Positions 3,512-62,920 of a stretch of 64,000 nucleotides of DNA are shown here, in pieces. Source of the DNA: Euglena gracilis. Its lineage: Eukaryota. The stretch lies in assembly GCA_039621445.1 (NCBI GenBank), contig CP154954.1:2666001-2730000 (forward strand), given 5' to 3'. The translations under genes and the position numbers were made by a program. Below the pieces are notes generated by a model that did not search any database, was not told the DNA's origin, and was given only the letters and a program-made list of their open reading frames with translations. The stretch's first letter is position 1. The number at the start of each line of letters is the position of its first letter.

Positions 3512-6088
3512 GTCCAAACCAGCCAGTTTTGAGGCGAGAGAAATGGAACATCAATTTTTTGGGTGAGAAAACTGGGGGACCTGTGCCTTCCCAAAACATC
3601 GTCGAATCATCCTGCCAATGCAAGCAGACGTTCTATTCTTTGAAAATGGCCAGACTTCGTCCATTTTAAAAAAAATGGGTCTGTAACATTCTGCAACGTT
3701 GTGTTACAATGTGTTTTTGCATTGTAAACACCAGCAAAACACTTTCTAAACATTTCGGGCTCAATCGGGTACTTTGGTGCGTTGTTTGTAGATTTCAATG
3801 TTGCAGGCAAACATCCACACCCCTACCCGCACCATACACCTCAACCCCGTTTGGTGAAACCAACATGGCGTATGTGGGTTTCAACAAATCGAATTTGCAG
3901 GTGCTTGGGAAAGGCTGGGTGGGGAATCAGATGTCCACTTTGGAAACGAAATGAACAATAATAACAAAAGGACCGCAAAAATCCACAAGAGCCACAAGGT
4001 TCGCATCCATCCAGAACTGAAAGGAACAAAGAATGACGCTCGACTGTTTGTTCACCGTTTGGAAATTCACCAGGGCACAGACTCCGTCCCCCACCCCATT
4101 TCATGGCCAACCAAACAATGAAATCCACCAGGGATAATAACAATAACAATAAAATTTGAGATTTCTCAGAAATTTATAAAGAGCCAAGCGAATTTTGCAT
4201 GAAGTCGATCAATTTCACAAACGACAAAATTTCACAATTTTTTTTGAAAAACATAAAAATTTTGTGGCCTCTCAACCTAAGCTCACTGGTGAACTTAGAC
4301 AAAGACAAATACCACTCCTTTGGCAATGCACAAGTTCTCACGAGGCGGTGGTCGCTTGGTGTTGAAGTAGGATTGCTTATTTCAACCTCCCCGAAATATG
4401 CCAAAAACCAATCCTTGGCCATAATTTAAAGACCTCAATTATTTTGAGCTTGAGATGATTATATTGAGTTGGTTGAGGTGGATTGGACGCCAGGGGGCTC
4501 TTTGCATACTTACAACGCTTTTGACGTTGGCCTTGCAATGAATGCCGGTGTAACAGCCAACTTCTCCATGGTTGATGTTGGTGAAACAACAACATGATGG
4601 AGTTGTTGGGGAAAAATTCTTTCTCAAGAAATGTAAGAAAAAATCATTTGAAAGAATAACTGGGACTGAAAATCGTCCAGTGCTTTTGGTTGTTGCTCCC
4701 CCCCTTGACCCACGAGCCCCCACCTCTCACGCACCCCGGCTCCCGGCTGCCCACCTCAGCCCAGATCGTCATAAACACAAGGGATGGCAGGAGGAAAACA
4801 AGAATGGCCCCATAAACAAAGAATGCATTTCCCCCTCGTTTTTCTCAGTTTCACCCCATACTTGCCAGAACACACCACCTTTTCTCTTCATGGAGTCCTG
4901 TCAAAAGCGGATTGGTGCCATTACCTTGGTGGCCCGGCGGCCCTCCCCACCACCTAAGCCCCACCTACAAGAAACCCGTTTCTTATAGGTGGGTTTCCCA
5001 AAAATGGCCCGAGGGGTTTCTTATAGGTGGGGGTTTCTTATTGGTGGGTTTCAATGTCCGAAAAATTTTGAGCCAACAAAAGGCCAAAAGTGGCCAAAAA
5101 CAGTCAAAAACTTCCTTTCGGCGCCGAAGAAAAATGGGGGGTTTCTTTTGTTCAAAGTTCCCCAGGAGGTTCGGCACGTCTGACGAGGACCCTCGGCCAC
5201 CAGGGGGGGGGGGGGGCATTTTGCCGGGCCGAGGGGGTCAGTCCCCCGGGGTCCACCATGGCGGGCAGCCGGAATTTCCCAAAGGAAATTCATTGGTATG
5301 GTTCGGCATGGTTGGCTGACCAGGGGGGGGGGGTCCCCATTTTGCTGTGCCGAGCGGGTCCGACCACCAGGGGGGGGGGGGATGGCTGCCGAACCTCCTG
5401 AGGCCCGAGATCACCAAGCCCGTCTCTCCGCTCGGGAAGGCACAGGGTGTTGTCTGCTCGCAGACATTGAATATAAAGCGTTTAAAACAGAAACATTTGC
5501 ACTTTTGATTAAAACACTGATATTTTATAGTTTCCCTCCCCTGCGTTAATCAAGCGGACAGAGGGCCGGCTTCGATCGGTACCATCCGTCAGACATGCGG
5601 GTTCGATCCCCGATAGTTCCGATAGTGGGCAAACAGATCGGTGGATCATCCCACCGTGCCCGACGGGTGAGCGCCGTAACCATGTGTTACGGTGGTTGCG
5701 ACCATGGCGGCTGTCTCTTTCTCTGGGGGGTCCCCCCCACTGCCCCCCCCCCCGGCCCCCATCTTCTTCTGACCGAGGGTGTTTGAAGACAAATTTTCTT
5801 GACGTGACCCCCCCCCCTATATGGCACACCCCAGGGAGCGTTTTGACCCCCTTGGCAACAATTAGGGGGGGGTGACAATTAGGGGTGGGGGTACTCAATT
5901 TATCCTACATGTCCATGGGTCCATGGGTACCCCCACCCCTGATTGTCGCCCCCAAGGGGGGGGGGCGACAATCAGGGGTGGGTGACAATGTCGTGGTCGT
6001 GGGTTCAATTCCTGCCTCGTCTTTTTAAGTCCAACTTTTGTTGGTAAAATAACTAACAAAAGCTGGTTAAAATTGGTTACAACTTCAC

Positions 6089-6159
6089 ACACATGGTGGG
6101 GATCGAACCCACGACCTCACGCTTCTGAGGTGCATGCTCTACCACTGAACTACATGCAT
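6089..6159 (-). pseudogene. Decayed tRNA-like sequence (tRNA pseudogene or SINE head), apparent anticodon CAG, short variable loop
   Basis: The A box (TAGTTCAGTGGTAGAGC) and T arm (GTGGGTTCGATCCCCAC) are intact. The stems contain many G-T pairs and a mismatch, consistent with CpG decay. Confidence 0.65.
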
Positions 6160-29217: not shown

Positions 29218-29974
29218 CAGGGAATTTCTTAAGGACCCCCGGGGGGGGGGGGTCCAGCCTCCGGCTGGCAAAAAGGCTGCTGGCTGGATTTGAGCTGCTG
29301 GCTGGACCCCCCCCCCCCCGGGGGGGGGGGGTGGGCGGGGAAGGGGGGGGTCCGGGGCTGGAGGGGGCTGGGCTGGGCTGGGTCGACGAAAAACAAAACT
29401 TTCTGACACATTTTTGCCATTTTCGACATTTTTATGGGTGGAGCTAGGTCAAGGCTGGGGGGCCGTGATGGAGGAAGCTGCGATGAGGGGAAAAAATGGT
29501 ACTTGTCTGTTATCGCACGACACCTTATTTTTTGGTTATCGCACGACACCTTATTTTTAGTCCTATGGGGTTATTTAAGGAGTAGGGTTAGGTGCGCACA
29601 GGCTATTTAGCGCAACATGGCCTGTGCGCACCTAACCCTGCTCCTTCAATAACCCCATATTAACCCAAAAAAAGGGCGTCGTGCGATAACCAAAAGGGGG
29701 TCTGTCGTGCGATAACAGACAAGTACCGAAAAAATGAAGGGACAGGTGAGCTGGGCAGCACAATTGGAAGGCCGGCCTTCGGCCGGCTGGGCCGGCCTGC
29801 GGCCGGCTGGCCCAGCCTCCGGCCGGGCTGGACCCGACTTTATTTCACTTGACCCCCCGGGGGGGGGGGGGGGGCTCCCAGCCCGAATTTGGGCTGCTGG
29901 CTGGATTTGAGCTGCTGGCTGGCTGGACCCCCCCCCCGGGGGGTAGGGTACCCTCCGGCTCAAGAAATTCCCTG
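29218..29974. mobile_element. hAT-like MITE nested in 28554-30098
   Basis: Termini CAGGGAATTTCTT...AAGAAATTCCCTG; perfect TSD AGCGCAAC. Confidence 0.9.
29498..29727. mobile_element. Second Merlin-like MITE nested inside 29218-29974
   Basis: Perfect TIR GGTACTTGTCTGTTATCGCACGACA; TSD GAAAAAAT. Confidence 0.9.
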
Positions 29975-31608: not shown

Positions 31609-34600
31609 ATGACTGGCAGCAAGCACCCAAGGGACAGCCCAAACCCCAGCCCCTCCAAAAGAAGGAGAGAGGTGTGCCAAGGACATGACAGGCAACCCTT
31701 TTCAACAGCTTGCAAAACAAATTCACAAAAAACAAGTGTTTTTGCAGACCACGGATCCCGACCCAGAATTTTGTTTTTGGCCACAAATATCAGGGCAGGC
31801 GTTTGGCGGGTTGAACACAGTTTTTTTCAAAGGGAAAATTTTGATAAGTTTCAATTTTCTTTTGGTGGTGAAATCGTGGAGTGGGATGACACACGCGCGC
31901 GTGCGCGCGCACACACACGCACGCACACACACCCACACACACGCACGCACGCACGCACACACACACACACGCGCGCGCGCGCACACACACAAACAAACAC
32001 AAATACACTGGCTGATTGTGGAAAATTGGTGATTGATTTTTTTTGGTGAGTGCTGGAGACCAGTCGCCAGCGACCATTGGTGGCACCTCTGGCGACCCCA
32101 CTGGTGGTCGGGCCGACTAGTCGACCGACCACCAACAATATGACAGGTGCACATTTTTGCTGGCGATTGATTTTTGGACCCCCCAATTGAAAGTCCCTCA
32201 TTAAACCCCCCCACTTCTCATTGAGGGGGTGTTTGCCCCGTGTCCCCCGCGTCCCCCTGCGTCCCGCGTCCCAAACCACCCCTCGAGAAAGAAGGCCCAG
32301 GAGAGTCTCACCGTCGATCAGTGTCCAATTGTCAATTTTGGCAATTTGCCAAAATTTGCCAATTTTTTTTGGGCAAATTTTGGTATACCCCCTTCGAAGT
32401 GGCCGCTTTCTTTTGGCGGCAAAGGTCGCCAAATTGACCCCCCCCCCCAAAGAATCCCTCTCGCCGCTTTGGGGTCCCACGGCGCCCGGAGGGCGGCCAC
32501 TTTGATGGGGGAGACTACCCACATTTGGACCCATCCGGACCATTTCCGGGTTATTTGGATGATTGATTTTCCATCCGTTTTGCAGGTGTCTGGGCTGGAG
32601 TATTGGAGGCAGTACCTTGCTGAGCCACGGGCTGTGGCCAAGCTGCCTACAGACCTTCCAAGGCCAGACAAATTGCGTTCAAGCTTTTGTGTTCCCATCG
32701 GGACCAGGGATTTTTTTAAGTTTGGACCCCCAGGGGGGGGGAGGGGGAGTGGTAGGGGGGGAGGGGCCGCCGTACCCCCCTCCCCCCCCCCTGGGGGGGG
32801 GTCCCCCCGGAGGGGGGTGGGATATACGTTTCGGCGCCGCAGGCGCCGAAAAAATTCTATTTTTAGCACTTTTCGCGATTTTTCGGCCATTTTTTGTGGG
32901 TCCCCCGGACCCCCCTCCCCCCCCCCCCCCGGGGGGGCCCCCCCTCTTGGGGGTGGGTGGGTGGGGGGGTGCCCCCCCCACCCCCCCCGCCCCGGTCTTA
33001 AAAAAACCCCTGATTCGGGACATGCGTGCAGTTTAGGGAAGTTCCAAATGTGGGTCCACTGAAACAGTGTTTCTGATACGAAAACTGTGTCCAGAACGCC
33101 GGTTCGGGCGTGAAGCCGTGTTCCAGAACGCCGGTTCGGTTCGGTTCGGTTCGGGTTCCGAACCGGCGTTCTGGAACACGGCTTCACGCCCGAACCGGCG
33201 TTCTGGACACAGTTGTTGAAACCGTGGATTAGGGGCTCTGGCTTCACACCCGAATCGGCGTTCAAGGAATAAAGGCCAATTTCGCCCTAAATACCCAGTT
33301 TCTGAACATTTTTGGGCATTTTTGGGATCCTTTGGGCTCATGGCCATGTCGATCGGCCGATTGAAGTTTTCATCCGTCTGATGCCAGGTTACCCATCAAT
33401 CGAAAGGTTTTTTTTTCAGAATTACGATTTGGAAAATTTTTTTGGTTGGACCACCCCTAGGTTTTTTCAGAATCACGGTTGGGAAATTTTGGCTGGACCC
33501 CCCCCAGATTTTTTCAGATTTGCAATGCCGAATTTTCGGTTGGACCCCGCTGGTTTTTTTTCCAGAATTATGGTTCGGATTTGATCCCCCTTTTTTTTCA
33601 GAATTCCGGTTCAGAGATTTTGGCTGGGTTTCTTCACAAACACGGTTGAAAAAAAAATTGGCTGGAGCCCCCCCTAGGGTTTTTCAGAAGTACAATTGGG
33701 AAATTTTGGCTGGACCCCCGGGAATTTTTCAAAATTGTTGGGAAATTTTTCCCCCCCCCCCCCCCTAATTGACCCCCCCCCATGATTGCCACCCCCCCCC
33801 CCCCCGACCGAAAATTTTTTCAGCCGCTCGCGTCTTTTCCGCCTTGCTTTTGCTTTGTCAAATGTCTACCTTGAGTGTTTCAAGCTCCGGCATGTGTCTG
33901 GCATGCCGCTAAAATGAGTTATTTCCACGGACCAAGGGGTTTGTCAGGAGTCCCTTGTATTTTGCCTTGTCCGTTCGGACCCCCCCCATAATTGACACCC
34001 CCCCCATAATTGACACTACCTGGGGGGTTTGGAGGGTTTCGGGGGTGTCAATTATGGGGGGGGGTAATTACGGTTGGGAAATTTTGGCCCCCCCTGGGTG
34101 TTTTCAAAATTGGTTGGACCCTCCCCTGGGTTTTTCAGAATTATGGTTAAGAAATTTTAGCTGGACCCCTTGGGTTTTTTCAGAATTACGATTTTTGGAC
34201 CCTTTGCGCAAATTCCAAAATCCACTGTTCACCTGCCATGTTGCCCCTTGATCAATAACCCTTCTCAAGGGTTTTAGATGGCCTTAGATTTCAGCCCTGC
34301 TGCATGGTATTCTATTTCAGAAAATCCCCAGATTTGGCCAAATGGAAATTGTTCCACAAAATACCCCAATTTCTGGCCAAATACCAAGAAGTGCTCAGAT
34401 ATGATTGCCTCATGTCTACAAACCATTTTGGACACTCTTTGGCACTTTTCATTTTCGGTCCCCAGGACGCCGTTTTCCCGCCCGAACCGGCGTTCTGGAC
34501 ACCGGTTCGGCGCAGAAATTTCTGCGCCGAACCGGCGTCCAGAACGCCGGTTCGGGCGTGAAGCCAGAGCCCCAATACACGGTTTCAATGGGTTTGCTGG

Positions 34601-37600
34601 AAGCCAAAGGCTTGCCCCAGCAGTCATCAAGGTTTGTGGAGGCCAAGCTGCCCTCCGGCTGCCTCCCCGATGAAGCCCACCTGGCCTCCCTCTTCGCCCT
34701 CCACGTCCACCGGCTGTCGGCGGAGGACGACGTCATCGTCGGGGCTGCCCTGCCCAGCGTGGGCCCGGCGGTGCTGCCCCTCCGCCTGGACTTCAGCAGC
34801 AGTTCCCCGGCGGCGGCGCGGACGTTCGCGACGGTGGCGGCGGCGGCCAAGGCGCACCTGGAGGTGGCGAAGGACGCGGTGCTGCCCCTGGGCAGGGCTG
34901 GGTGGGACCGGCGGTGCGCCTCATTCTCACATTCCTCCACCCAGCGCTGCCGCCGAATGACATCGAGGCGGCGGCAGGAGTGAGCCAGGGACACGCAAGT
35001 GCCAGCCAACTCCAAACAACCAAATGATGGTTGGTTGGTCCCAACATCCTTGCCTGGGGGGTGAGCAGCACCCAGAACAAAGTTGACCATTTTCCCTGTT
35101 AGAAAAACAGGGAGAGGGCGTTCAGGAGCATTTTTGTAAGGCGTAATTTTTCAAAATTTTTCTTGCATTTTTAAATTTTCAGGCGTCTATTTTTCCGAGG
35201 GAATTCAAGCCACGCCTGTGCTTAGTCGGGTGCCTACCTCACGGGGGGGGGGGGTGCTAGGGGCAGGCACCCTATACCACCCATCCGACCTCCCCGGGGG
35301 GGGGTTGGGTTTTGGGGGGTACCTGCCCATAGCAGGCACCCCCTCCGACCGAGGGCCCGGAAAAGGCCCTTTTCAATGAAAATTTTCTGGGTCCCCCCCA
35401 TACCCCTACCCGGGGGGGGGTGTGCCTGCTAGGGCAGGCCCTATAGCACCCACCCACCCCCTCCCCCCCGGTCGGTAAGCACAATCCTGATTCAAGCCCA
35501 AAATCAAGAAAAAAATGTTGAAACCCCCACTTTTTCGAGTTTGGGTCTGTGGATGATGTTCCAGCGATGCCAGTTCTTCCCCCGGAACTGGCTTATTCTT
35601 GCCGAGATTTTGCGACTTCATTTTTCGGCTCGAATTTCGAAAAATTTTCCCAGATTTTTAAAAAATTTTAAGGAGTTTTAAGCCATTGACAAAATATTAG
35701 TTTGTGTTTTAAAAAATGGTTTTCAGGCGCCTTAAAAAAGAACCCTGAGGTCCTGGCCACCTGGGGGGGGACAGGTACGAGCGGACACCCGGAGGTTACC
35801 CCTTATATTTGGCACAAAACAACCGCAAAGTCCTGAATAATTTTTGGGATCTCAAAATGGTTCCCTGTTCAACTTGCAATGCAAGACTTGCAATTCCACC
35901 GATGAAATCTAGCTCTTTCCTTTGGAGCAATCAAGCAATTGTGTGCTGAGGAAGCGCCACTCTTTACTGCAGTGTTTTCCTCAACGGGCAGTGGTTTAGA
36001 CGCGGTGTGTTTTTTTTGCCATACGTTCATGGAGAAGCCCTGATGACCTGCCCCTCCGTGTGCATTCTTGCAGTTTATGAGAAGCTTTTCATTCATTCCA
36101 GGCCATTGGATTTGCCAAAGGGGGATGGAGGTGAACAGTGACTCTCTGGTGTCTTACTTGGTCTCTTACTCCCCCAAGCTCAAAAATTCTGTTTTCCGTA
36201 CATAGCATGCACATTAAGACCACAAAGACTGTGGGGGTTGAGTTGACCGCTCCATCCCTCACTTTGTTTGCCCAGTATGCGTTGGTCTCTTACCCCAAAG
36301 CCCCACATGGTTTAAAGTCGAGCCTTGCTCTGCGCTTCGCGAGTGATTTGATACAATCAGCGTGCTTCCTCTGTCCATTCTCTCGTTCATTGCAGGAGGG
36401 GCAGTCGCCATATGAGTTGCTGCTGCAAGTAGTGGGAGAGACCCTGCGCCTGCACTACCAGACCGCTTTGTTCACGGCCGAGTTTGTTGCAGACCTGCTG
36501 CAGCAATACCTCCTCCTCCTGGAGCAGTTCAGGCTTTTGCATTGGTTTTTTTAATGCATTTTTTTGCCGTTCTCCATTTTGTTGAATTTGTGGTGGGGGA
36601 GCTTTTTTCCACCACCATGTTGTTATTTCAGCGGTTTTTTGAGTTCTGCTCACAATTCCGAATTTTAAAAAAAATTGTATCTCTTTGTCTGGCCATTATT
36701 GGATTTTTGGCCAAAAATACTATTTTATGCTTAAAATAAAACCAAACTCCCAAAATCATGGAAAAAGGTGTTTGCATTTCTCCTCTCCCCGTATCGCCCC
36801 CGCAGATCTCATTCCCAATGCCAAATCTGAATTCTGGCCTCTAACGAGGAAAATTTGCAATTCCCGCACCCTCTTTCTGTCTAACCCCCCCACCCACCCA
36901 CCCTTGTTCATGCCGCATTTGGAATTGATGCGCAGATGAGCTTGGTTATGACAGAAAGCCTTAAAAAATCCAGGACAATGAAAAAAAATTTTGTGGTTTT
37001 GTATTTTGTGTGTGTGTGTCAGGGTTCGATATAAGGAGGGCGTACATGGTTTAGGTGGGGGGGGTACCCCCCCCACCCCCCCCCCTCCTGGCCCGCAGGG
37101 GGGGGGGTCCGGACCACCCCCCCCACCTGCAAGGGGGGTCCGGACCGACCCTCGGGGGGGTTCCCGGGACCCCCCCCAAAAGGGTAAATTTTTTCCTCCG
37201 GCGCTTCGCGCCGAAAATTTTTTGCATTTTTGGCACATTTTTGCCCAAAAAGTGCCCAAATGGCACTTTTGGTCGTTTTGAGGGGTCAAAAATTTTCGAA
37301 ATTCAGCCACCCTGACCGCGCACCTGTTTAGGTGGGGGGGGTGTCCCCCCACCCCCCCCCCCCCCGGCCCCCAGGGGGGGGTCCGGACCAACCCCCCCAC
37401 CTGTCCCTATATCGAACCCTGGTGTGTGTGTGTGTGTGTGTTCCAGAAACGGTGGGAATGACAGCAGCAGACAGGACGTGAACCAAATGTGCATCATGCT
37501 GGTGAGACAGGGTGCACGATTCTCAGCTCTGGCCTGGCATTGACCAGTGCAAACCCCGAGCAGGGGATTTACAGTTACTCCGTCATCACCGCGCAGGCGA

Positions 37601-47166: not shown

Positions 47167-48680
47167 TTACCGCCTCCCCCTGGGGTCCATGCGATCGTCG
47201 CCCACAATCCATTCGTCCAGGGGTCTATCCTCCTGCCGCGTCGCGCGTGACTGCTGCTGTCAGTGGCAGGCCTTCACGTCAGGTGCTGCCCCTTTCTGAC
47301 TCTCCTTCATTACCGCAAGGCGCGTTATATATTCTAGGGGTCTTCTGACAGGATTGGCTTGGTTTGAACGCAACCTGCATTTTCACCTGCACATGTTCAC
47401 GGATGCTCACAAAAGTCGTTGGTTGGTTGATGGGATGAATGGATGGATGGATGTTTCGGATGGGCGCTGAAATTTTTTGATTGTGTAGCGTTGCACTCAT
47501 GATTTTACCAACACATTATTTGTGGTACTGCACTCATTGTCATGTTGCAAAGTCCACCCCTGCACCCCTGGGTCTCCCAGAAAATTTTCACCCCACGTGT
47601 GCACTCATTGATTTGCTTGGTGACAGCTTCTAGAGGGGGGGGGGTAGGTGTGCTCTGTACTCTAAGCCCTCCCCCAAGTTTCAACGCAGACCATTTGTGT
47701 TTGGATTTTATAGCGAAACATATATGCTCCGTTTGTGAAAGGGAGCACATAGAAGACGGTCCGCGAAACAGGGATGCACGGTGGTGTTTGTGGGTGTTCT
47801 TTCTTGAAAATCATACCACATAAAACATCTATTTTAACAATCCTACCACTCGCCACCATTCGAGTAACGTTTGCGGACCCGTTTCTGCACAGATTTTCCA
47901 GGTCAAGGCTCACTTCAGTCTTTAAAACCATTTCACCCTTTTGCTTGATCATATTACTGACCGCGATGGGGCAGACCCCACCCAGGGGGTTTTCTTTGGA
48001 CCCAGAACCGGACCAAAAGTGGCCCCCAAAGTGGGTCCGGTCCCCCTGGGGGCCCCCCGAGGTCCCCCAGGGCACCCCTGAGGCGGGTGGGTGCCTCCTC
48101 CCCCCTCCCCCAGTGCTTAAGAACCTCTGACTCCAGCATGGCCAGGGGTTTCCTTGAGCCGGAGGGGACCCTACCCCCTGGGGGGGTCCAGCCAGCCAGC
48201 ACCTTTTTTTTCTAACGAGCACCTCCAAGCTGGGCGTCCCCTCCGGACCCATAACGTTTGGGCTGGACCAAGTTTTTGGAAACAGCGGCAAAAAATGGGC
48301 AAAAATGGCCTTTTTGGGTGGTTTTTGGGATTTTTTCCACCTAAATTTGGCTGAAAAATTCCAACCCTCCTGGATTTGGACTTTTTTGGGGGCATTTTGG
48401 CAGCTGTCGGGTCCAGCTGCCATTCGGGCTCGAACCTCCCTGGAACACCCACCCCCCATGGGTGGGGGTCCAGCCAGGACCTTTTTTCCAGCCGGCCTGC
48501 GGGACCCCCCCCCTCCCAGGGTCCTTAAGAACACCCCTGAGCATGGCAGCTGACACTATAGGGCACAGATGTATGGTGGATGCTCCGTCTCAAAGCCTGG
48601 ACTGGAGGAGAGTTGGCCAGCAATGCCATTGCTCTTGATCTCCCTCTCCCCGTGCACTGCATCCACAAGGGCGCCATGAC
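47167..48680 (-). CDS. Last two exons of an unknown minus-strand gene (approx. 48603-48660 and 47167-47261); upstream exons probably lie in 51.4-52.6 kb
   Basis: The exons read ...VHGEREIKSNGIAGQLSS|RQQQSRATRQEDRPLDEWIVGDDRMDPRGRR*. They join in frame across a hairpin intron at 47262-48602 (GTC-CAGGCTT...AGGCCTG-CCACT|G). Confidence 0.5.
48143..48539. mobile_element. hAT-like MITE, same family as 29218-29974
   Basis: Termini CAGGGGT...ACCCCTG; perfect 8-bp TSD AGCATGGC. Confidence 0.9.
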
Positions 48681-57399: not shown

Positions 57400-59614
57400 A
57401 CGCCGCAATTTGGATTGAATAGTTGACGGTGAGGGGGTCAACTGTCCACTGTGCCAAAAAACCTTGAGTTTTAAATGGCGCCAGATGATGGTGTGCAAAT
57501 ATTATCACTGTATCGCTGCCACTGTGGACATTTGGCCAGTCAATATTGGCGTGCTTGCCGGCGCACAGGTACTTGCATGGATCTCCTCATGATTCCATTT
57601 CAATACGCTTTCATGCCGCACTTTCATGGCTGGACTCCTCTCAGCCCACAGTGTGCAAGTCTTGGCCGAACCCCAGCAGACGGATCCGCCAGCCGCCCGG
57701 CCGCAGTTCATTTTCACTCCCAACCGTCCTGTTGCTCAGCCTGTGGCTCTCTCTATGCAACGGCAACACCCTCCATTCCTTGAAGTCTCTCCCTGGGTGA
57801 GCCCTTTGCGGGGGGTCGTTCCCCCGGAGTGGCAGTGGTGACCACATCGACAGGCTGAAGTTTAGGGTGTGGCTAACCCACCAGGGGGGGGGGCTGACTT
57901 GAGGCGGTGGCTGTTGAGTGGTGGGTGGGACACTATGGCAAAAGCCCCCGGGCGCTTGCCGAAGGCGCCGGAATTTCAGCAATGGCTCTTTTTGGTTGAA
58001 ACTCTGCCCACGACCAGGCACTCCACGGCACCCTCAGACCCACCAGGGGTTGGTTGAATTCAGCCTGGTGGGGGAGACCCAAAGTGACTGACCTTCCCGA
58101 GAACGTTGACTGGCGGCCCAACCGGGCTCGGTGAGCAATACGTATGTTCCCGCCAACGTCACAATGCAGGAGCTGGTCGGTTGCGCGTGGGCCGCTTGAA
58201 CTCTCACACATGATGTACATGCAACTGATCGCATGTTTTGTTTGGTCCGTTTGGGGGTGAGCGTCCAAAGTCAGATGTCTAACTGCCACTCAATGAAGGT
58301 GTTGCAAAATCCAGTTCCCCAAGGCTTTGTATTTTTTGATTTTCTGCTCATGTTTGTGGACTTCCCCACCGGATGTTACGTGCCGCTGGCTGATGTGCGT
58401 CCGATGATTTTCAAACCATTTCCCGTTCCTTCAGAGGTTTTTGTTTTCCAACCCAGCACACAGGATCGTCACATTATTCCTTCTTCGTGTCCGAGGTACT
58501 CATCACACCTCAAGAGATGCGAGTTCAGCCCCGTCCCTAAAGTTTCCACAGAGGCAGTGGAGAGCATGGATTCATTTAACACCTGGTTGACCGCAGCGGC
58601 GTAATTTTCATAAAACTAGCAAAATTTGAAAGAATCTGGATGGGTCCTCTGGGACCCCAAATGTGGGTACCCAAAGGCCTGCCCACTCGGACCCAAGGGA
58701 AAGGGTCATACGGCCCTGAAACTGGAAACCCATCGGGGGTTCTCATTGTGTTCTCTGGGATAGTTATTCGAGCGTGCCGGCCGGATTAGTGTCTACGGGT
58801 GTGAAAAACATGCGGATGTCATAAAACTAGCAAAATTCAGCGTTTTCGACCGATTTTGGCCGGGTTTTGGGTGGGTGGGTGGGTGGGTGGTTGACCCGGG
58901 GGGGGGGGTTGTGGGTGAGTGGGTTTTCCAAAAAGTGGGTGGGTTTGGGTCGGGCAAAAGTGCCCCCAGGGGCCACCAAGTGGATCTATGGTGGAGAGGC
59001 GGGTGTCACAACTGAAGTCCCAGACTCCAACCGAATCCCCAGCTCAAACTCCCCGTCTGGACAACTGCGACACCCTTTCGAGGCTCTCGCACACGGACTC
59101 TCGCCCAGGACCTTTTCCCTTGCGTCGATGACAGCATTTCTCCCTTCCTTTCAGTTCAAACCTGCCAAGCTGCTTCTGAATAATCATGCAGCATTCCCCC
59201 ACGGAACGTTTTTGAGTCCGGCGTCTTGCAAAGGCCAATTTAATTTACAAATGCAAGTGTTCTCTCGTCGTATTTTTGGGCATCGGGGGGATTATTGCCT
59301 GTGTATTTGTCACTGAGTTTTCATTTGGTATGCATATGCCACAGAGAAGTGCCAGCACACCTCCGATTCTGGCACGTATGTCCAAATATGTGCACATGGG
59401 TATGCACATGTGCACATGCATCCGCGAGCACATACACCCATGCATGCAAACCTCACCTCATGTGTTTGCAGTCTGTGATTTCTGCCTGTCTATCTTCATT
59501 CCCCATCCCTGGCATGGAAGAACTCTTTGCCAAAGGCAGGTTCTGGCCCCAGTCCCCTGCCCTCCTCTCGCCCTCCCTGCACCGACGGCGGTCTCCCGCC
59601 CACCCATTTCCAGC

Positions 59615-62600
59615 CGGCCCCGCAGCCGCGTCGGCCGCGCTGCCCAGCCGGCTGCGGCTCTCGCAGGAAGCTCCGGAGTCCGGAGTGTGGGCCACCCGGA
59701 CGCTATTTGGTCTGGGTGGAGAGGGAGCCGCATCAATTCCATTCGTGCCAGTTTATTAGTTCACCGCTTATTTCAGTTTATGGCAGATTTGTGTCCCGTT
59801 CGCACGTTTCCCTCGTGTGTGGGAAAAAATGTTTGACCCCCCCAAAATGTTCCGAGGTGCCAATTTACTGGCACCAAATGTTTGATTTTCACCCCTACCA
59901 ACTGATTTTGTGCAATACGTTTTTCTCCCGATGGTGGAAGAATTTGGAGCGGGGGAAAGTTACCCCCCCCCCCCCCCCAAATACAACCCCCCCCGGTTTT
60001 ATATTCGGGCGCAAATTTCAAGATCCCCAGGGGGTTTTTATATTTGGGGGTTTTATATTCGGTCGGAAAATTCAACTTCCTGGCGGGATCCAGTTGTCAC
60101 TTTTTCGGTCCAAAATCACTAATACACCCACCCCCCGGGGTCCAAACATTTCACTTTTCGGGCGAAGGAGCAACCTTCACATGTTTTTGGTGAAAATTGT
60201 TCCCAAATCTGACATAAATCACAATTTCAGGAGATATTTTTTCGAATTTTTTTCCTTCCGGCGCTTCGCGCCGGAGGGGGATATTTGGGCGAGATTTCAA
60301 GGTCCTCAGGGGGGTTTTATATTTGGGGGGGGGTTATATTTGGGGGTTTTATTGTTATCTGAACGTGACCGTCATCTGTACTCAGTAGGGTTCATTAGGA
60401 AGGCTTCGTGAGAATCCGAATTTGTCCAAAGTTGGAAACTCTGTTGCTCTTGCTGTGGACGATGGAGTAGAGTGCCAAATCACGTCCTTTCTTTGTAGCT
60501 CACACCGGGTTCGGTGGTGGACGTGGGAGGTGTCCCTCAAGTGTGCCCCTTGGCGTTCCTCAAACACTCTGCATGATCCACCGGCATGGGTTTGGTCTGC
60601 GACCTCCACCCAGGCGGTGACCCCCGCGCCATCCGCACGCCCCCACACCCAGGCTGCTTTGTACCTCGGAAGACCCCCTTTTGGGCGGGTGGGTCTGGGG
60701 CCGGACACCCACCCCCTGGTGGTCCTGCCCCGGACCAGGCTGGGTGGGCGGGCGGGTGGACCCCTCCAGGGGTGTTTTAGTCTTGGCTTCTGGGGGGGGG
60801 GTTGGGTGTGTGGGTCCGGCCCGAAGGCGCCAAATTTTTGTTGAAAACGGTGCTATTTTTAGCACTCTTTCACGAAAAAGTGCTAAAAATAGCACCTTTT
60901 TCAACAAAACTTTGGCGCCTTCGGGCCGTGAAGTGAGTGGGTTCCCCGGGACCCCCCCCGGGGTCTTAAAAAAACCCCCTCCCCCCTCCCCACACGGGAC
61001 TTAGACAGAAGCCTGGCCCCACCGGCCCATCATCGCAGGCCTGCCACAGAGCCCCGGGACCGGCCGGGGCGCCGCCCGGCTGCTGCCGGAGCCCGCCCCG
61101 GCCGAGCCACGAAGGCCGGCCGGTTTCACGGCCCGCCTGTTCTCCAAGGTGCGGCAGCGGGTGGACCGGTCGGGCTGCCTCTGGGAACTACTTTTTTTCC
61201 CATTTTTTTGTACGCAATATTTTTTATGTTAATTATTTTATTTTTTTGAATATTTTTTTTTTGCCCGCCATTGGCTTTTCATTACCCTAACAAGTTTGCC
61301 ATGCTGTGGTTTCGCGGTGGTCAAGCTGAGGGGCCGCTGGATGCGATTTGCTTTTCAGGGGCCCCCCTGGAAGGATTGGATGGGGAGAAGGGTCGACCCC
61401 CGGCCCTCCACCCACAGGGCTTCCAGGTTTCCAGCACAGCCCCACCCTGGGAAGACTGCCACCGGGCTGGTGCTGACCCAAAAAAAACGTCCCTCCGTAA
61501 CAGTTGGCAAGTCATATCCAGAGGTCCGACCCCTTTTTCAGTCAGAATTTTCCTCTTCAGCCTCTTCCGCAGAATCAATGTCCCCAAGTGCCATGGTTGG
61601 TGTTGTGGGGGTGGACCCCCCTCAGGTTTTCCCGTACACCCTCGACCTGTCAGGTGACAGTTTTCCGGGGGGGGGGGAGTATAGCTATGAGTGAAGGAAC
61701 CAATGAATCAACCTCCCTCGGCTCATTTGACGCAGCCATATTGCCCAACAGTCGAGTAGGGGGTTGCCGCAGAAAATACAGCCGCACATTGCTCTTGGCT
61801 GGGGGAGATGGCAGTCTGCTTTTGGGTCGCATATTTGATGTCCAGAATTATATTTGATGTCCAGAAGAATGTCCAAGAAAAAAAATCATTCTTGGGTCTG
61901 GATAAGAGAGTGCCCGCAAACAAGTCCCAAAGGAAGAGGACCCTTCCGACGCCGACGTTCCGCATCACGATGGACAGGAGTCTTCCCTTCCAACGGCTAA
62001 ACAATTCCACTTTTGGTTTCGACGTTTGCGCCTGACTTGCGACGTCCTGTCGGCCAAAGTTTCCCGAACCTTTTGTCCCAGGGGTACGATTCTGTGATTC
62101 ACAACTGATTCTCCATTTAGGTCAATGGCTGTAGGTGTGCAAGACTGTCAAACCATGACCCCTGAGGGCAACGCTGCCATCCCGATCGCAAAGGGTCAGC
62201 CCCCACCCGCAAGCAGATTTTTGATATGTGGGAAGACTTTCCAATTTAAGAGAGTCACTTTTTAGTTTGAAATAATATATATATATAATCTACATAATAT
62301 TATCTCTCTCTCTCTCTCTCTCTCTTTGTGTGTGTGTGTGTGTGCGTTGTGTGTTGTTTGTCTTGTGTGCGTGTTGTGTGTTGTGTGTGCGTGTTGTGTG
62401 TGTGTTGGGTGTGTGTTGTGTGTGTGTGTGTTTTGTGTGCGGTGTGTGTGTGTGTGTGTTGTGTGTTGTGTACGTGTTGTGCGTGTTTTGTGTGTGTGTG
62501 TTGTGTGTTGTGTGTGTGTTGTGTGTGTTGTGCGTGTGTGTGTGTGTGTTGTGTGTGTGTGTTGTTGTGTGTGTGTGTGTGGTGTGTGTTTGGGTGGTGT

Positions 62601-62674
62601 TTGTGTGGAGTGTTTTGTGCTTGTGTGTGTGTGTGTTGTGTGTGTGTGTGTGTTTTGTGTGTGTGTTGTTTGTG

Positions 62675-62742
<68 letters not shown>

Positions 62743-62920
62743 TGGGGGTGTGCGTGCGCGTGTGTGTGGCTCCCAAATCTCAAATGTCAGCCCCATCCGT
62801 TCTCTGGTGGACGCTGCGGCTGGCCCCCTCCTCACGGCCGTCACACCGGTGCCCGTGGAAGGCGGGGTGCTCCTGCAGACCCCCGACAGAGGGGCCGGCT
62901 GCTTTGTGCGCGCCAGTGGC
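59615..62920 (+). CDS. Unknown protein, partial; supported exons 60499-60557, 60600-60646, 61021-61148, ~61775-61839, 61906-61971, 62055-62083, 62791-~62920
   Basis: In-frame joins give LTPGSVVDVGGVPQVCPLAF|DLHPGGDPRAIRTPP|HRPIIAG...RLFSK and LLLAGGDGSLLLGRIFD|ESARKQ...VPHHD|QSFPNLLSQG|PIRSLVDAAAGPLL. They use four hairpin introns plus GT-AG introns with matching phases. Confidence 0.5.
60650..61015. mobile_element. MITE that makes up a nonconventional intron (60647-61020)
   Basis: Termini CAGGCTGCT...AGAAGCCTG; flanks CCCACACC/GCCCCACC; internal motifs shared with other MITEs; removing the element plus 8 nt gives an open frame. Confidence 0.7.
62304..62767. repeat. (TC)n followed by degenerate (TG)n microsatellite inside GT-AG intron 62084-62790
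   Basis: Direct reading. Confidence 0.95.

Follow-up and report, generated by a model that had tools for sequence, protein, structure and literature searches.

Is a transposon-like segment inside a Euglena gracilis gene removed from the RNA as an intron, and if so, to which class of introns does it belong and where did it come from? The question is raised by 374 nucleotides (nt) at positions 60647-61020 of a 64,000-nt stretch of the E. gracilis genome (assembly GCA_039621445.1, contig CP154954.1, positions 2,666,001 to 2,730,000 of the forward strand; hereafter the window, in which all positions are counted). A preliminary description, made from the letters of the window, had presented the segment as a whole MITE (a miniature transposable element with inverted repeats) that acts as an intron, is flanked by a residual target-site duplication (TSD) and was gained relatively recently. 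We found that the segment is an intron with exonic flanks: DNA contains it, and records derived from RNA lack it. It is very probably a nonconventional intron of the euglenid type, a known and abundant class, and would go back to a transposon-derived insertion which is old rather than recent.

To begin with the splicing itself, reads and contigs over positions 59300-61800 were compared between the RNA-seq runs X21 and X24, the run X15 (guessed to be RNA) and the DNA run X3; the RNA libraries appear to be unstranded. A joint from 60645 to 61020, which skips 374 nt and can slide by 4 nt, was present in one raw X21 RNA-seq read and in one X15 contig (depth 85.3), and in none of the records of X3. 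The joint of the preceding intron (59707 to 60618, skipping 910 nt) was found in four X21 reads and in the same X15 contig, and was not found in X3. The depth of X15 was 75-88 at 59552-59719 and 85 at 61064-61147, and it was 0-2 inside 60644-60811. Since X15 had a depth of 0 at 59300-59467 and 59720-59887, where the depth of X3 was 17-51, X15 behaves as complementary DNA (cDNA). In X15 contig record 2 (539 nt), which carries three nonconventional joints, the aligned pieces 59621-59707 and 61020-61167 have exactly 28 letters between them, showing that the micro-exon located there, at 60618-60645 as aligned, is kept and that none of the 374 nt is retained.

Because of the 4-nt sliding ambiguity, there are five equivalent cuts, from 60646-61019 to 60650-61023. 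The cut that had been proposed, 60647-61020, proved to be correct to the base within this slide: the RNA-derived joint skips exactly 374 nt, C/A stands at both junctions, ...AIRTPP is joined to HRPIIAG... in an open frame, and the cut is the one of the five that fits the published Euglena code. Neither retention of the segment in mRNA nor splicing at other sites nor non-exonic flanks were observed.

The code of the Euglena nonconventional introns has been defined genetically as 5'-N3-CDG...CH'G-N5-6/R(exon)-3', where D and H' are complementary and the slash, here and below, marks the junction with the exon (Nomura et al. 2025, PMC12501133). According to the same source, spacers of 3 and 5 nt work best, and the motif pairs CAG-CTG, CTG-CAG and CGG-CCG are functional. 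The segment reads ACC-CAG...CTG-GCCCC/A and fits this code with a single slide and solely on the + strand. The same held for all four introns of the gene, none of which fitted at a second slide or on the - strand. When random pseudo-introns of the same lengths were examined, 565 of 200,000 fitted the code on either strand and at any slide; a fit of four out of four is thus far beyond chance. Since the code is asymmetric, it also sets the strand of the introns as +.

The likeness to the nonconventional introns of euglenids (as described in PMC3935182, PMC4770533 and PMC12501133) comprises borders other than GT-AG, CAG at +4 to +6 and CTG at -8 to -6 (the 3-nt and 5-nt spacers), a purine that opens the next exon with both junctions being pyrimidine/purine, terminal inverted repeats, a cut that can slide owing to direct repeats, and the presence of several such introns in one gene. 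No essential difference was found, although the predicted fold of the 374-nt intron pairs each end internally and not end-to-end, and the intron contains a recognisable copy of a repeat family. Nonconventional introns account for 71.8% in Euglena agilis (PMC12501133). The intron call of the preliminary description was thus borne out, whereas the affiliation to this known class had been missed.

A conventional spliceosomal intron, or an element of the Introner type known from Micromonas and dinoflagellates, could also look like this if its sites were unusual. Introners are MITE-like, and of their two splice sites the element provides one and the duplication the other (PMC11282704); the window is rich in MITE-like repeats. 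However, the five slides on the + strand read CA..CC, AC..CC, CC..CA, CC..AC and CA..CC, and on neither strand did one of the five equivalent cuts give GT-AG, GC-AG or AT-AC; these three pairs were likewise absent, on both strands, from the borders of the three neighbouring introns. An Introner of the dinoflagellate or Micromonas type was rejected, as no GY-AG cut exists, and the explanation as a whole appears highly improbable. What the segment, as a putative transposon insertion, would have in common with the Introners of Micromonas, Aureococcus and dinoflagellates and with the MITE-derived non-canonical introns of Fritillaria borealis is a short transposon with terminal inverted repeats (TIRs) and a TSD in an exon, removal at the RNA level and restoration of the frame (PMC11282704). 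Those introns are spliceosomal and use GT/AG-type sites from the element or the duplication, or an adapted U2 spliceosome (PMC11282704), whereas the 374-nt intron is devoid of GT/AG-type sites and its cuts are set by the distance from the CAG/CTG pair.

We also considered that the joint is an artefact, produced by a template switch of the reverse transcriptase across a very stable hairpin that has the 4-nt repeat CACC on either side, or that it comes from a processed retrocopy. The stability of the predicted fold (-235 kcal/mol, z = -10), the 4-nt direct repeat at the cut and the finding of one raw read are in line with such an origin. An artefact would, however, leave mainly unspliced cDNA, which argues against it in view of the spliced depth of 85 in X15 and the depth of 0-2 inside the intron. 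Moreover, three such joints occur in the same record, all four introns fit an asymmetric one-strand code, including some that have hardly any repeat or none, the frame runs on through every joint, and the joint is missing from the DNA run X3. Splicing of this class of introns has in addition been demonstrated genetically (PMC12501133). We regard an artefact or a retrocopy as hardly credible. The coordinates of the gene, of the intron and its parts, and of the MITEs discussed below are collected in Table 1.

Table 1. Positions and properties of the host gene, the 374-nt intron with its component repeats, and the four clean MITEs of the window. Fractions give matching over total positions.
Feature	Position	Strand	Description	Basis
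Upstream intron, 448 nt	59103-59550	+	GCC-CAG...CTG-GCCCC/A	Loose end before 59550 (7 X21 reads), code fit
Exon	59551-59708	+		X21 depth of 2.6-3.8 in each direction; X15 depth of 75-88
Intron, 910 nt	59709-60618	+	GGT-CTG...CAG-GCGGT/G	4 X21 reads and X15 contig, code fit
Micro-exon, 28 nt	60619-60646	+	Encodes ..PRAIRTPP	X15 record 2, frame
Left TSD-like 8-mer	60642-60649	+	CCCACACC; right partner GCCCCACC at 61016-61023	6/8 match
Intron under study, 374 nt	60647-61020	+		RNA joint, code fit
5' end of the intron	60647-60652	+	Spacer ACC (N3) and CAG (60650-60652)	Code fit
Outer left TIR, 15 nt	60649-60663	+	Pairs with 61002-61016	80% complementary (12/15)
Inner MITE-like element	60767-60981	+	Left end CAGGGGTGTTTTAG..., right end ...GGTCTTAAAAAAACCCCCTC	Alignments; putative boundaries
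Near-perfect palindrome, 112 nt	60817-60928	.	GGCGCC and TAGCAC motifs, high-copy core	X3 depth
Outer right TIR	61002-61016	+	Partner of 60649-60663	Aligns with clean-MITE ends
3' end of the intron	61013-61021	+	CTG 61013-61015, spacer GCCCC (N5) 61016-61020, exon purine A 61021	Code fit
Downstream exon	61021-61167	+	Encodes HRPIIAG...RQRVD	X15 record 2; depth 85 at 61064-61147
Intron, 754 nt	61168-61921	+	GGT-CGG...CCG-CAAAC/A	X15 loose end behind 61167, code fit
Last coding exon segment	61922-62097	+	Stop 62095-62097	Contig loose end, open frame
Clean MITE	29218-29974		Flanking 8-mers AGCGCAAC / AGCGCAAC	TIR 15/20
Clean MITE	32705-33012		Flanks ATCGGGAC / ATTCGGGA(C), 8-bp duplication and one extra T	TIR 16/20
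Clean MITE	37020-37421		Flanks GTGTGTGT / GTGTGTGT, inside microsatellite	TIR 17/20, TIR start 14/14
Clean MITE	48143-48539		Flanking 8-mers AGCATGGC / AGCATGGC	TIR 13/20

The gene has at least five exons, with four introns in this region. Its outer joints were placed by loose ends: the consensus of the loose ends before 59550 in seven X21 reads equals positions 59072-59101 of the window, and the first 30 letters of the X15 loose end behind 61167 equal positions 61922-61951. The spliced frame stays open across the five exons for more than 219 amino acids (aa), as far as the stop at 62095-62097, and none of the intron lengths is a multiple of 3.

Is the intron then one whole MITE? The TIRs that had been described are present, 60649-60663 and 61002-61016 matching at 12 of 15 positions. 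This pairing is above chance, as at least 8 of 11 further matches were reached by 61 of the 22,835 CAG...CTG pairs which lie 100-1500 nt apart; compared without gaps over 20 positions, the outer TIR scored 13/20. At either end, the intron can be aligned with the TIRs of the clean MITEs of the window. The central hairpin was likewise confirmed: its arms, 60817-60871 and 60874-60928, are 55 nt long, 95% complementary and separated by a loop of 2 nt, and both of them carry GGCGCC.

The motif GGTCTTAAAAAAACCCC had been reported as common to the element and the MITE at 32705-33012. That MITE does contain it, exact copies in the 64-kb window being restricted to 60962 and 32994, and when up to three mismatches were allowed, there were five matches against 1.05 expected. 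The motif is not located at the end of the intron, but stops within it, some 39 nt before the 3' splice site. Since the inner ends, 60767 and 60981, align with the TIRs of 32705-33012 and belong to the same TIR family, GGTCTTAAAAAAACCCC would be the terminal repeat of an inner element.

Copy number was estimated from the summed depth in X3, which was 27 at 60644-60811 and 29 at 60980-61063, like that of the single-copy flanks, and 7,481 and 5,992 over 60812-60979. The depth takes in records that are at least 95% alike, and G/C runs vary among the copies, so that old or variable copies are understated. A BLAST comparison of 60600-61060 with the window returned relatives for the inner pieces only and none for the outer parts, and a local alignment of the outer-right 34 nt to the other elements gave none at p<=0.01 against shuffled sequences. 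When a metagenome scan was made for a 20-mer taken from the left end, one locus was hit; it is a chance match, as only the 20-mer agrees and the sequence around it is unrelated. The left part of the intron contains subterminal modules, among them ACACCCACCCCC...GGTCC, that are also present in four other MITE-like elements. The outer right end fits a loose pattern of CAGG, a T-rich run, TAAG, any base and CCC, and so do the ends of three clean MITEs; as the pattern was devised after the MITE ends had been viewed, this match is not independent.

These results bear on the proposal of the preliminary description that one whole MITE was recently inserted into the exon with an 8-bp duplication and is now removed as the intron. 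The TIR (12/15) and the flanks (6/8) are compatible with it, the length removed is that of the element plus 8 nt, which is what the loss of one copy of the duplication would give, clean MITEs with similar ends exist in the window, and the literature contains a nonconventional intron that was newly gained and has direct repeats of 8 nt (PMC4770533). The flank match is real, CCCACACC (60642-60649) and GCCCCACC (61016-61023) agreeing at six of eight positions, and at the same spacing such a match was reached by 550 of all 63,618 pairs (0.9%). When both 8-mers contain at least five C, however, the figure was 54 of 293 pairs (18%), and the match is thus at chance level for C-rich 8-mers, so that a residual TSD is not supported. 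The flanks of the other three introns of the gene matched at just 2/8.

A whole element is not supported either. There are two TIR-like pairs, an outer one at 60650/61015 and an inner one at 60767/60981, and the part that is high-copy in X3 (approximately 60812-60979) is the inner portion only, the outer parts 60644-60811 and 60980-61063 being single-copy in X3 and lacking relatives in the window. A recent gain is disfavoured by the outer TIR of 13/20 and the flanks of 6/8, compared with 15-17/20 and 8/8 in clean MITEs of the window (48143-48539, with a TIR of 13/20, apart), and by the absence of an empty-site joint from X3, the one DNA run examined for it. A single recent insertion of a whole MITE is accordingly improbable. 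What remains of that proposal are the transposon-like ends, as the CAG...CTG-terminated inverted repeats resemble those of the clean MITEs, and not the whole-element reading.

A different possibility is that the intron has a non-transposon origin, through break repair or from ancient times, that its ends have been kept by selection for splicing, and that a MITE was inserted into it later. Since the code itself demands CAG/CTG and pairing (PMC12501133), TIR-like ends are expected whatever the origin. The single-copy state of the outer parts, the TSD at chance level and the 2/8 flank match of the other three introns agree with this possibility, and double-strand-break repair has been proposed as a source of such introns (PMC4770533). 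It is opposed by the outer right end, which fits the MITE-end pattern (devised post hoc) together with the ends of three clean MITEs, and by the outer left part with its subterminal modules of four other MITE-like elements; these likenesses are short and partly of low complexity. We hold a non-transposon origin to be rather unlikely, though it deserves to be kept in mind. From its sequence, the intron appears to be built of MITE-family material, most simply as an older, decayed element (TIR 13/20) with a younger copy nested inside; judged from this single copy, a compound element or two abutting units may stand in place of the nesting.

Several observations weigh against the reading of 60647-61020 as a nonconventional intron derived from an old transposon. 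A single raw RNA read spans the 374-nt joint, X15 is classed as RNA only by guess, and in the RNA run X24 there was no read across 60645 to 61020 or across 59707 to 60618. The encoded protein is of low complexity and rich in P/A/R/S, and a homologue search among longer proteins with the 63-aa open reading frame (ORF) of the last exon gave 10 candidates, none of which scored, so that the coding status is argued by the open frame and by nothing else. Likewise, since the outer parts have no copies in the window and a single-copy depth, and since the flank match is at chance level, it is solely by resemblance that the outer part points to a transposon. The predicted RNA fold of the region (-235.1 kcal/mol, z = -10) does not bring the intron ends together directly: in the ensemble, the partner of the 5' CAG is not the other end but an internal CUG at 60740-42 (p 0.99), that of the 3' CUG is the CAG of the inner element at 60767-69 (p 0.44), and pairing forced from end to end costs 13.6 kcal/mol (-221.5 vs -235.1). 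This speaks against a simple picture in which the two ends pair.

According to the prediction, two hairpin domains adjoin each other with 16 nt between them, and both junctions are still located at one junction point. The thermodynamically preferred hairpins, 60647-60747 and 60764-61020, each fit the published code alone, the former with CAG 60650, CTG 60740 and GGTGG/G, and the latter with CAG 60767, CTG 61013 and GCCCC/A. Their separate removal would leave 16 nt and was rejected, since the two pieces of the X15 contig are exactly 28 nt apart; the whole 374 nt thus leaves in the dominant product.

A mechanism by which the nonconventional intron could be excised may be pictured as follows. Its outer ends would be diverged terminal repeats of the CAGG...TAAG.CCC type, like those of the clean MITEs with 8-bp duplications, and a second copy of the MITE family of the outer ends (approximately 60767-60981, with the high-copy palindromic core) would be nested inside. 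Folding of the pre-mRNA could bring the junctions together, either through the inverted repeats that bear CAG and CTG or through the two abutting hairpin domains. A machinery that is probably non-spliceosomal would then make one cut 3 nt upstream of CAG and another 5 nt downstream of CTG, and ligate the exons. Nonconventional introns have been described as being excised as full-length circles, independently of the spliceosome (Guminska et al. 2021, according to PMC11282704 and PMC12501133), and by analogy with this literature the 374-nt intron may also be released as a circle.

Which elements do the ends of the intron resemble? The four clean MITEs of the window have TIRs beginning with CAGGG, and their 8-bp duplications are perfect in three cases and near-perfect in the fourth. 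Two of them, 29218-29974 and 48143-48539, are members of one family in opposite orientation, with the ends CAGGG..TTCTTAAGGACC and CAGGG..TTCTTGAGCCGG and with perfect, complex 8-bp target duplications. When 29218-29974 was excised, a frame of 248 aa was obtained on the - strand, which is repetitive and of low complexity. A Pfam scan of the 10 longest ORFs of the window gave no families, and no transposase was seen in that scan. A test for enrichment of perfect direct repeats of 8 nt according to the trinucleotide next to them was dominated by tandem repeats and was uninformative; two of the clean MITEs were recovered among the four pairs of the CAG class, and the remaining two pairs were without TIRs.

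Transposons of the hAT superfamily have 8-bp TSDs and TIRs of 5-27 bp, the TIR of Mar being CAG(G/A)GGTAGGC (PMC3517528), and the Merlin families of E. gracilis have 8-bp TSDs and TIRs starting with GG (PMC8101967). Judged by their letters, the CAG-initial ends of the clean MITEs tentatively favour a hAT-like over a Merlin affiliation. Compared with MITEs that make 8-bp duplications (hAT, Merlin), to which the four elements with CAGGG TIRs and 8-bp duplications correspond, the 374-nt intron is alike in that its ends resemble theirs and in that the removed length is the element plus 8 nt. It is unlike them in that a duplication of its own is not demonstrable (6/8, chance level) and that its outer ends are single-copy in X3.

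The spacers of the code offer a further link between nonconventional introns and these elements. As the two spacers add up to 3 + 5 = 8, the code would remove an element together with exactly one copy of its duplication, and thereby restore the frame from before the insertion to the base. A purine is present at position 6 of the duplication, in either orientation, in three of the four clean MITEs; the duplication of 37020-37421 has T at this position. Having CAG and CTG outermost, an 8-bp duplication and this purine, three clean MITEs should therefore be excisable if transcribed; for 29218-29974 and 48143-48539 the published code should permit excision from RNA in either orientation, as far as their sequences tell. 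We put forward, as a tentative proposal which may well turn out to be wrong, that the nonconventional code of Euglena is an undoing, at the RNA level, of MITEs with CAG...CTG ends and 8-bp duplications. With similar reserve, and at somewhat less than even odds, the 374-nt intron can be seen as an aged, RNA-proven example of the same geometry that the intact CAGGG MITEs of the window display.

Some repeats in and around the gene may be recorded here on their own account. The 9-mer CACCCAGGC occurs at both borders of the 28-nt micro-exon (60607-60615 and 60646-60654). The 910-nt intron contains a high-copy repeat cluster at 59972-60391, where the summed depth in X3 rises to 116,760 and the DNA contigs show many alternative joints, indicating that many variant copies are present elsewhere. 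Inside the 754-nt intron, 61568-61735 (core about 61645-61677) is a very high-copy short repeat with a summed depth of about 100,000 in X3; it attracts many reads in both RNA runs, with varied loose ends on either side, and has T at 61664 in this copy and C in nearly all reads. Just downstream of the stop of the gene, 62327-62768 is a long imperfect (TG)n microsatellite of about 236 units preceded by (TC)n. An Rfam search of the whole window gave one match only, a tRNA gene at 6088-6159 on the - strand.

In 2014, before any transposable element had been identified in euglenid genomes, it was proposed that nonconventional introns arose from MITE-like elements (PMC3935182), and the idea has been restated since then (PMC4770533, PMC11282704, PMC11170887, PMC12621601); in 2025, the origins of these introns were still termed unclear (PMC12501133). 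One strain-specific new intron with eight-nucleotide direct repeats has been ascribed to break repair (PMC4770533). In the open literature searched, neither the relation 3 + 5 = 8 nor a link to hAT was found to be stated; supplements and subscription papers lie outside that literature, and this absence therefore carries little weight.

Taken alone, the 374-nt intron is ordinary, being one more in a type of genome where nonconventional introns can be the majority. The locus is of value as a worked example, as it combines base-exact RNA support, a fit to the code and transposon-like ends with true CAG...CTG MITEs in the same 64 kb. The 3 + 5 = 8 correspondence turns the hypothesis of a MITE origin into a concrete prediction that can be tested across the genome. 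If it were true genome-wide, the source of the nonconventional introns would be hAT-like MITEs, and the odd spacing of 3 and 5 nt would be explained.

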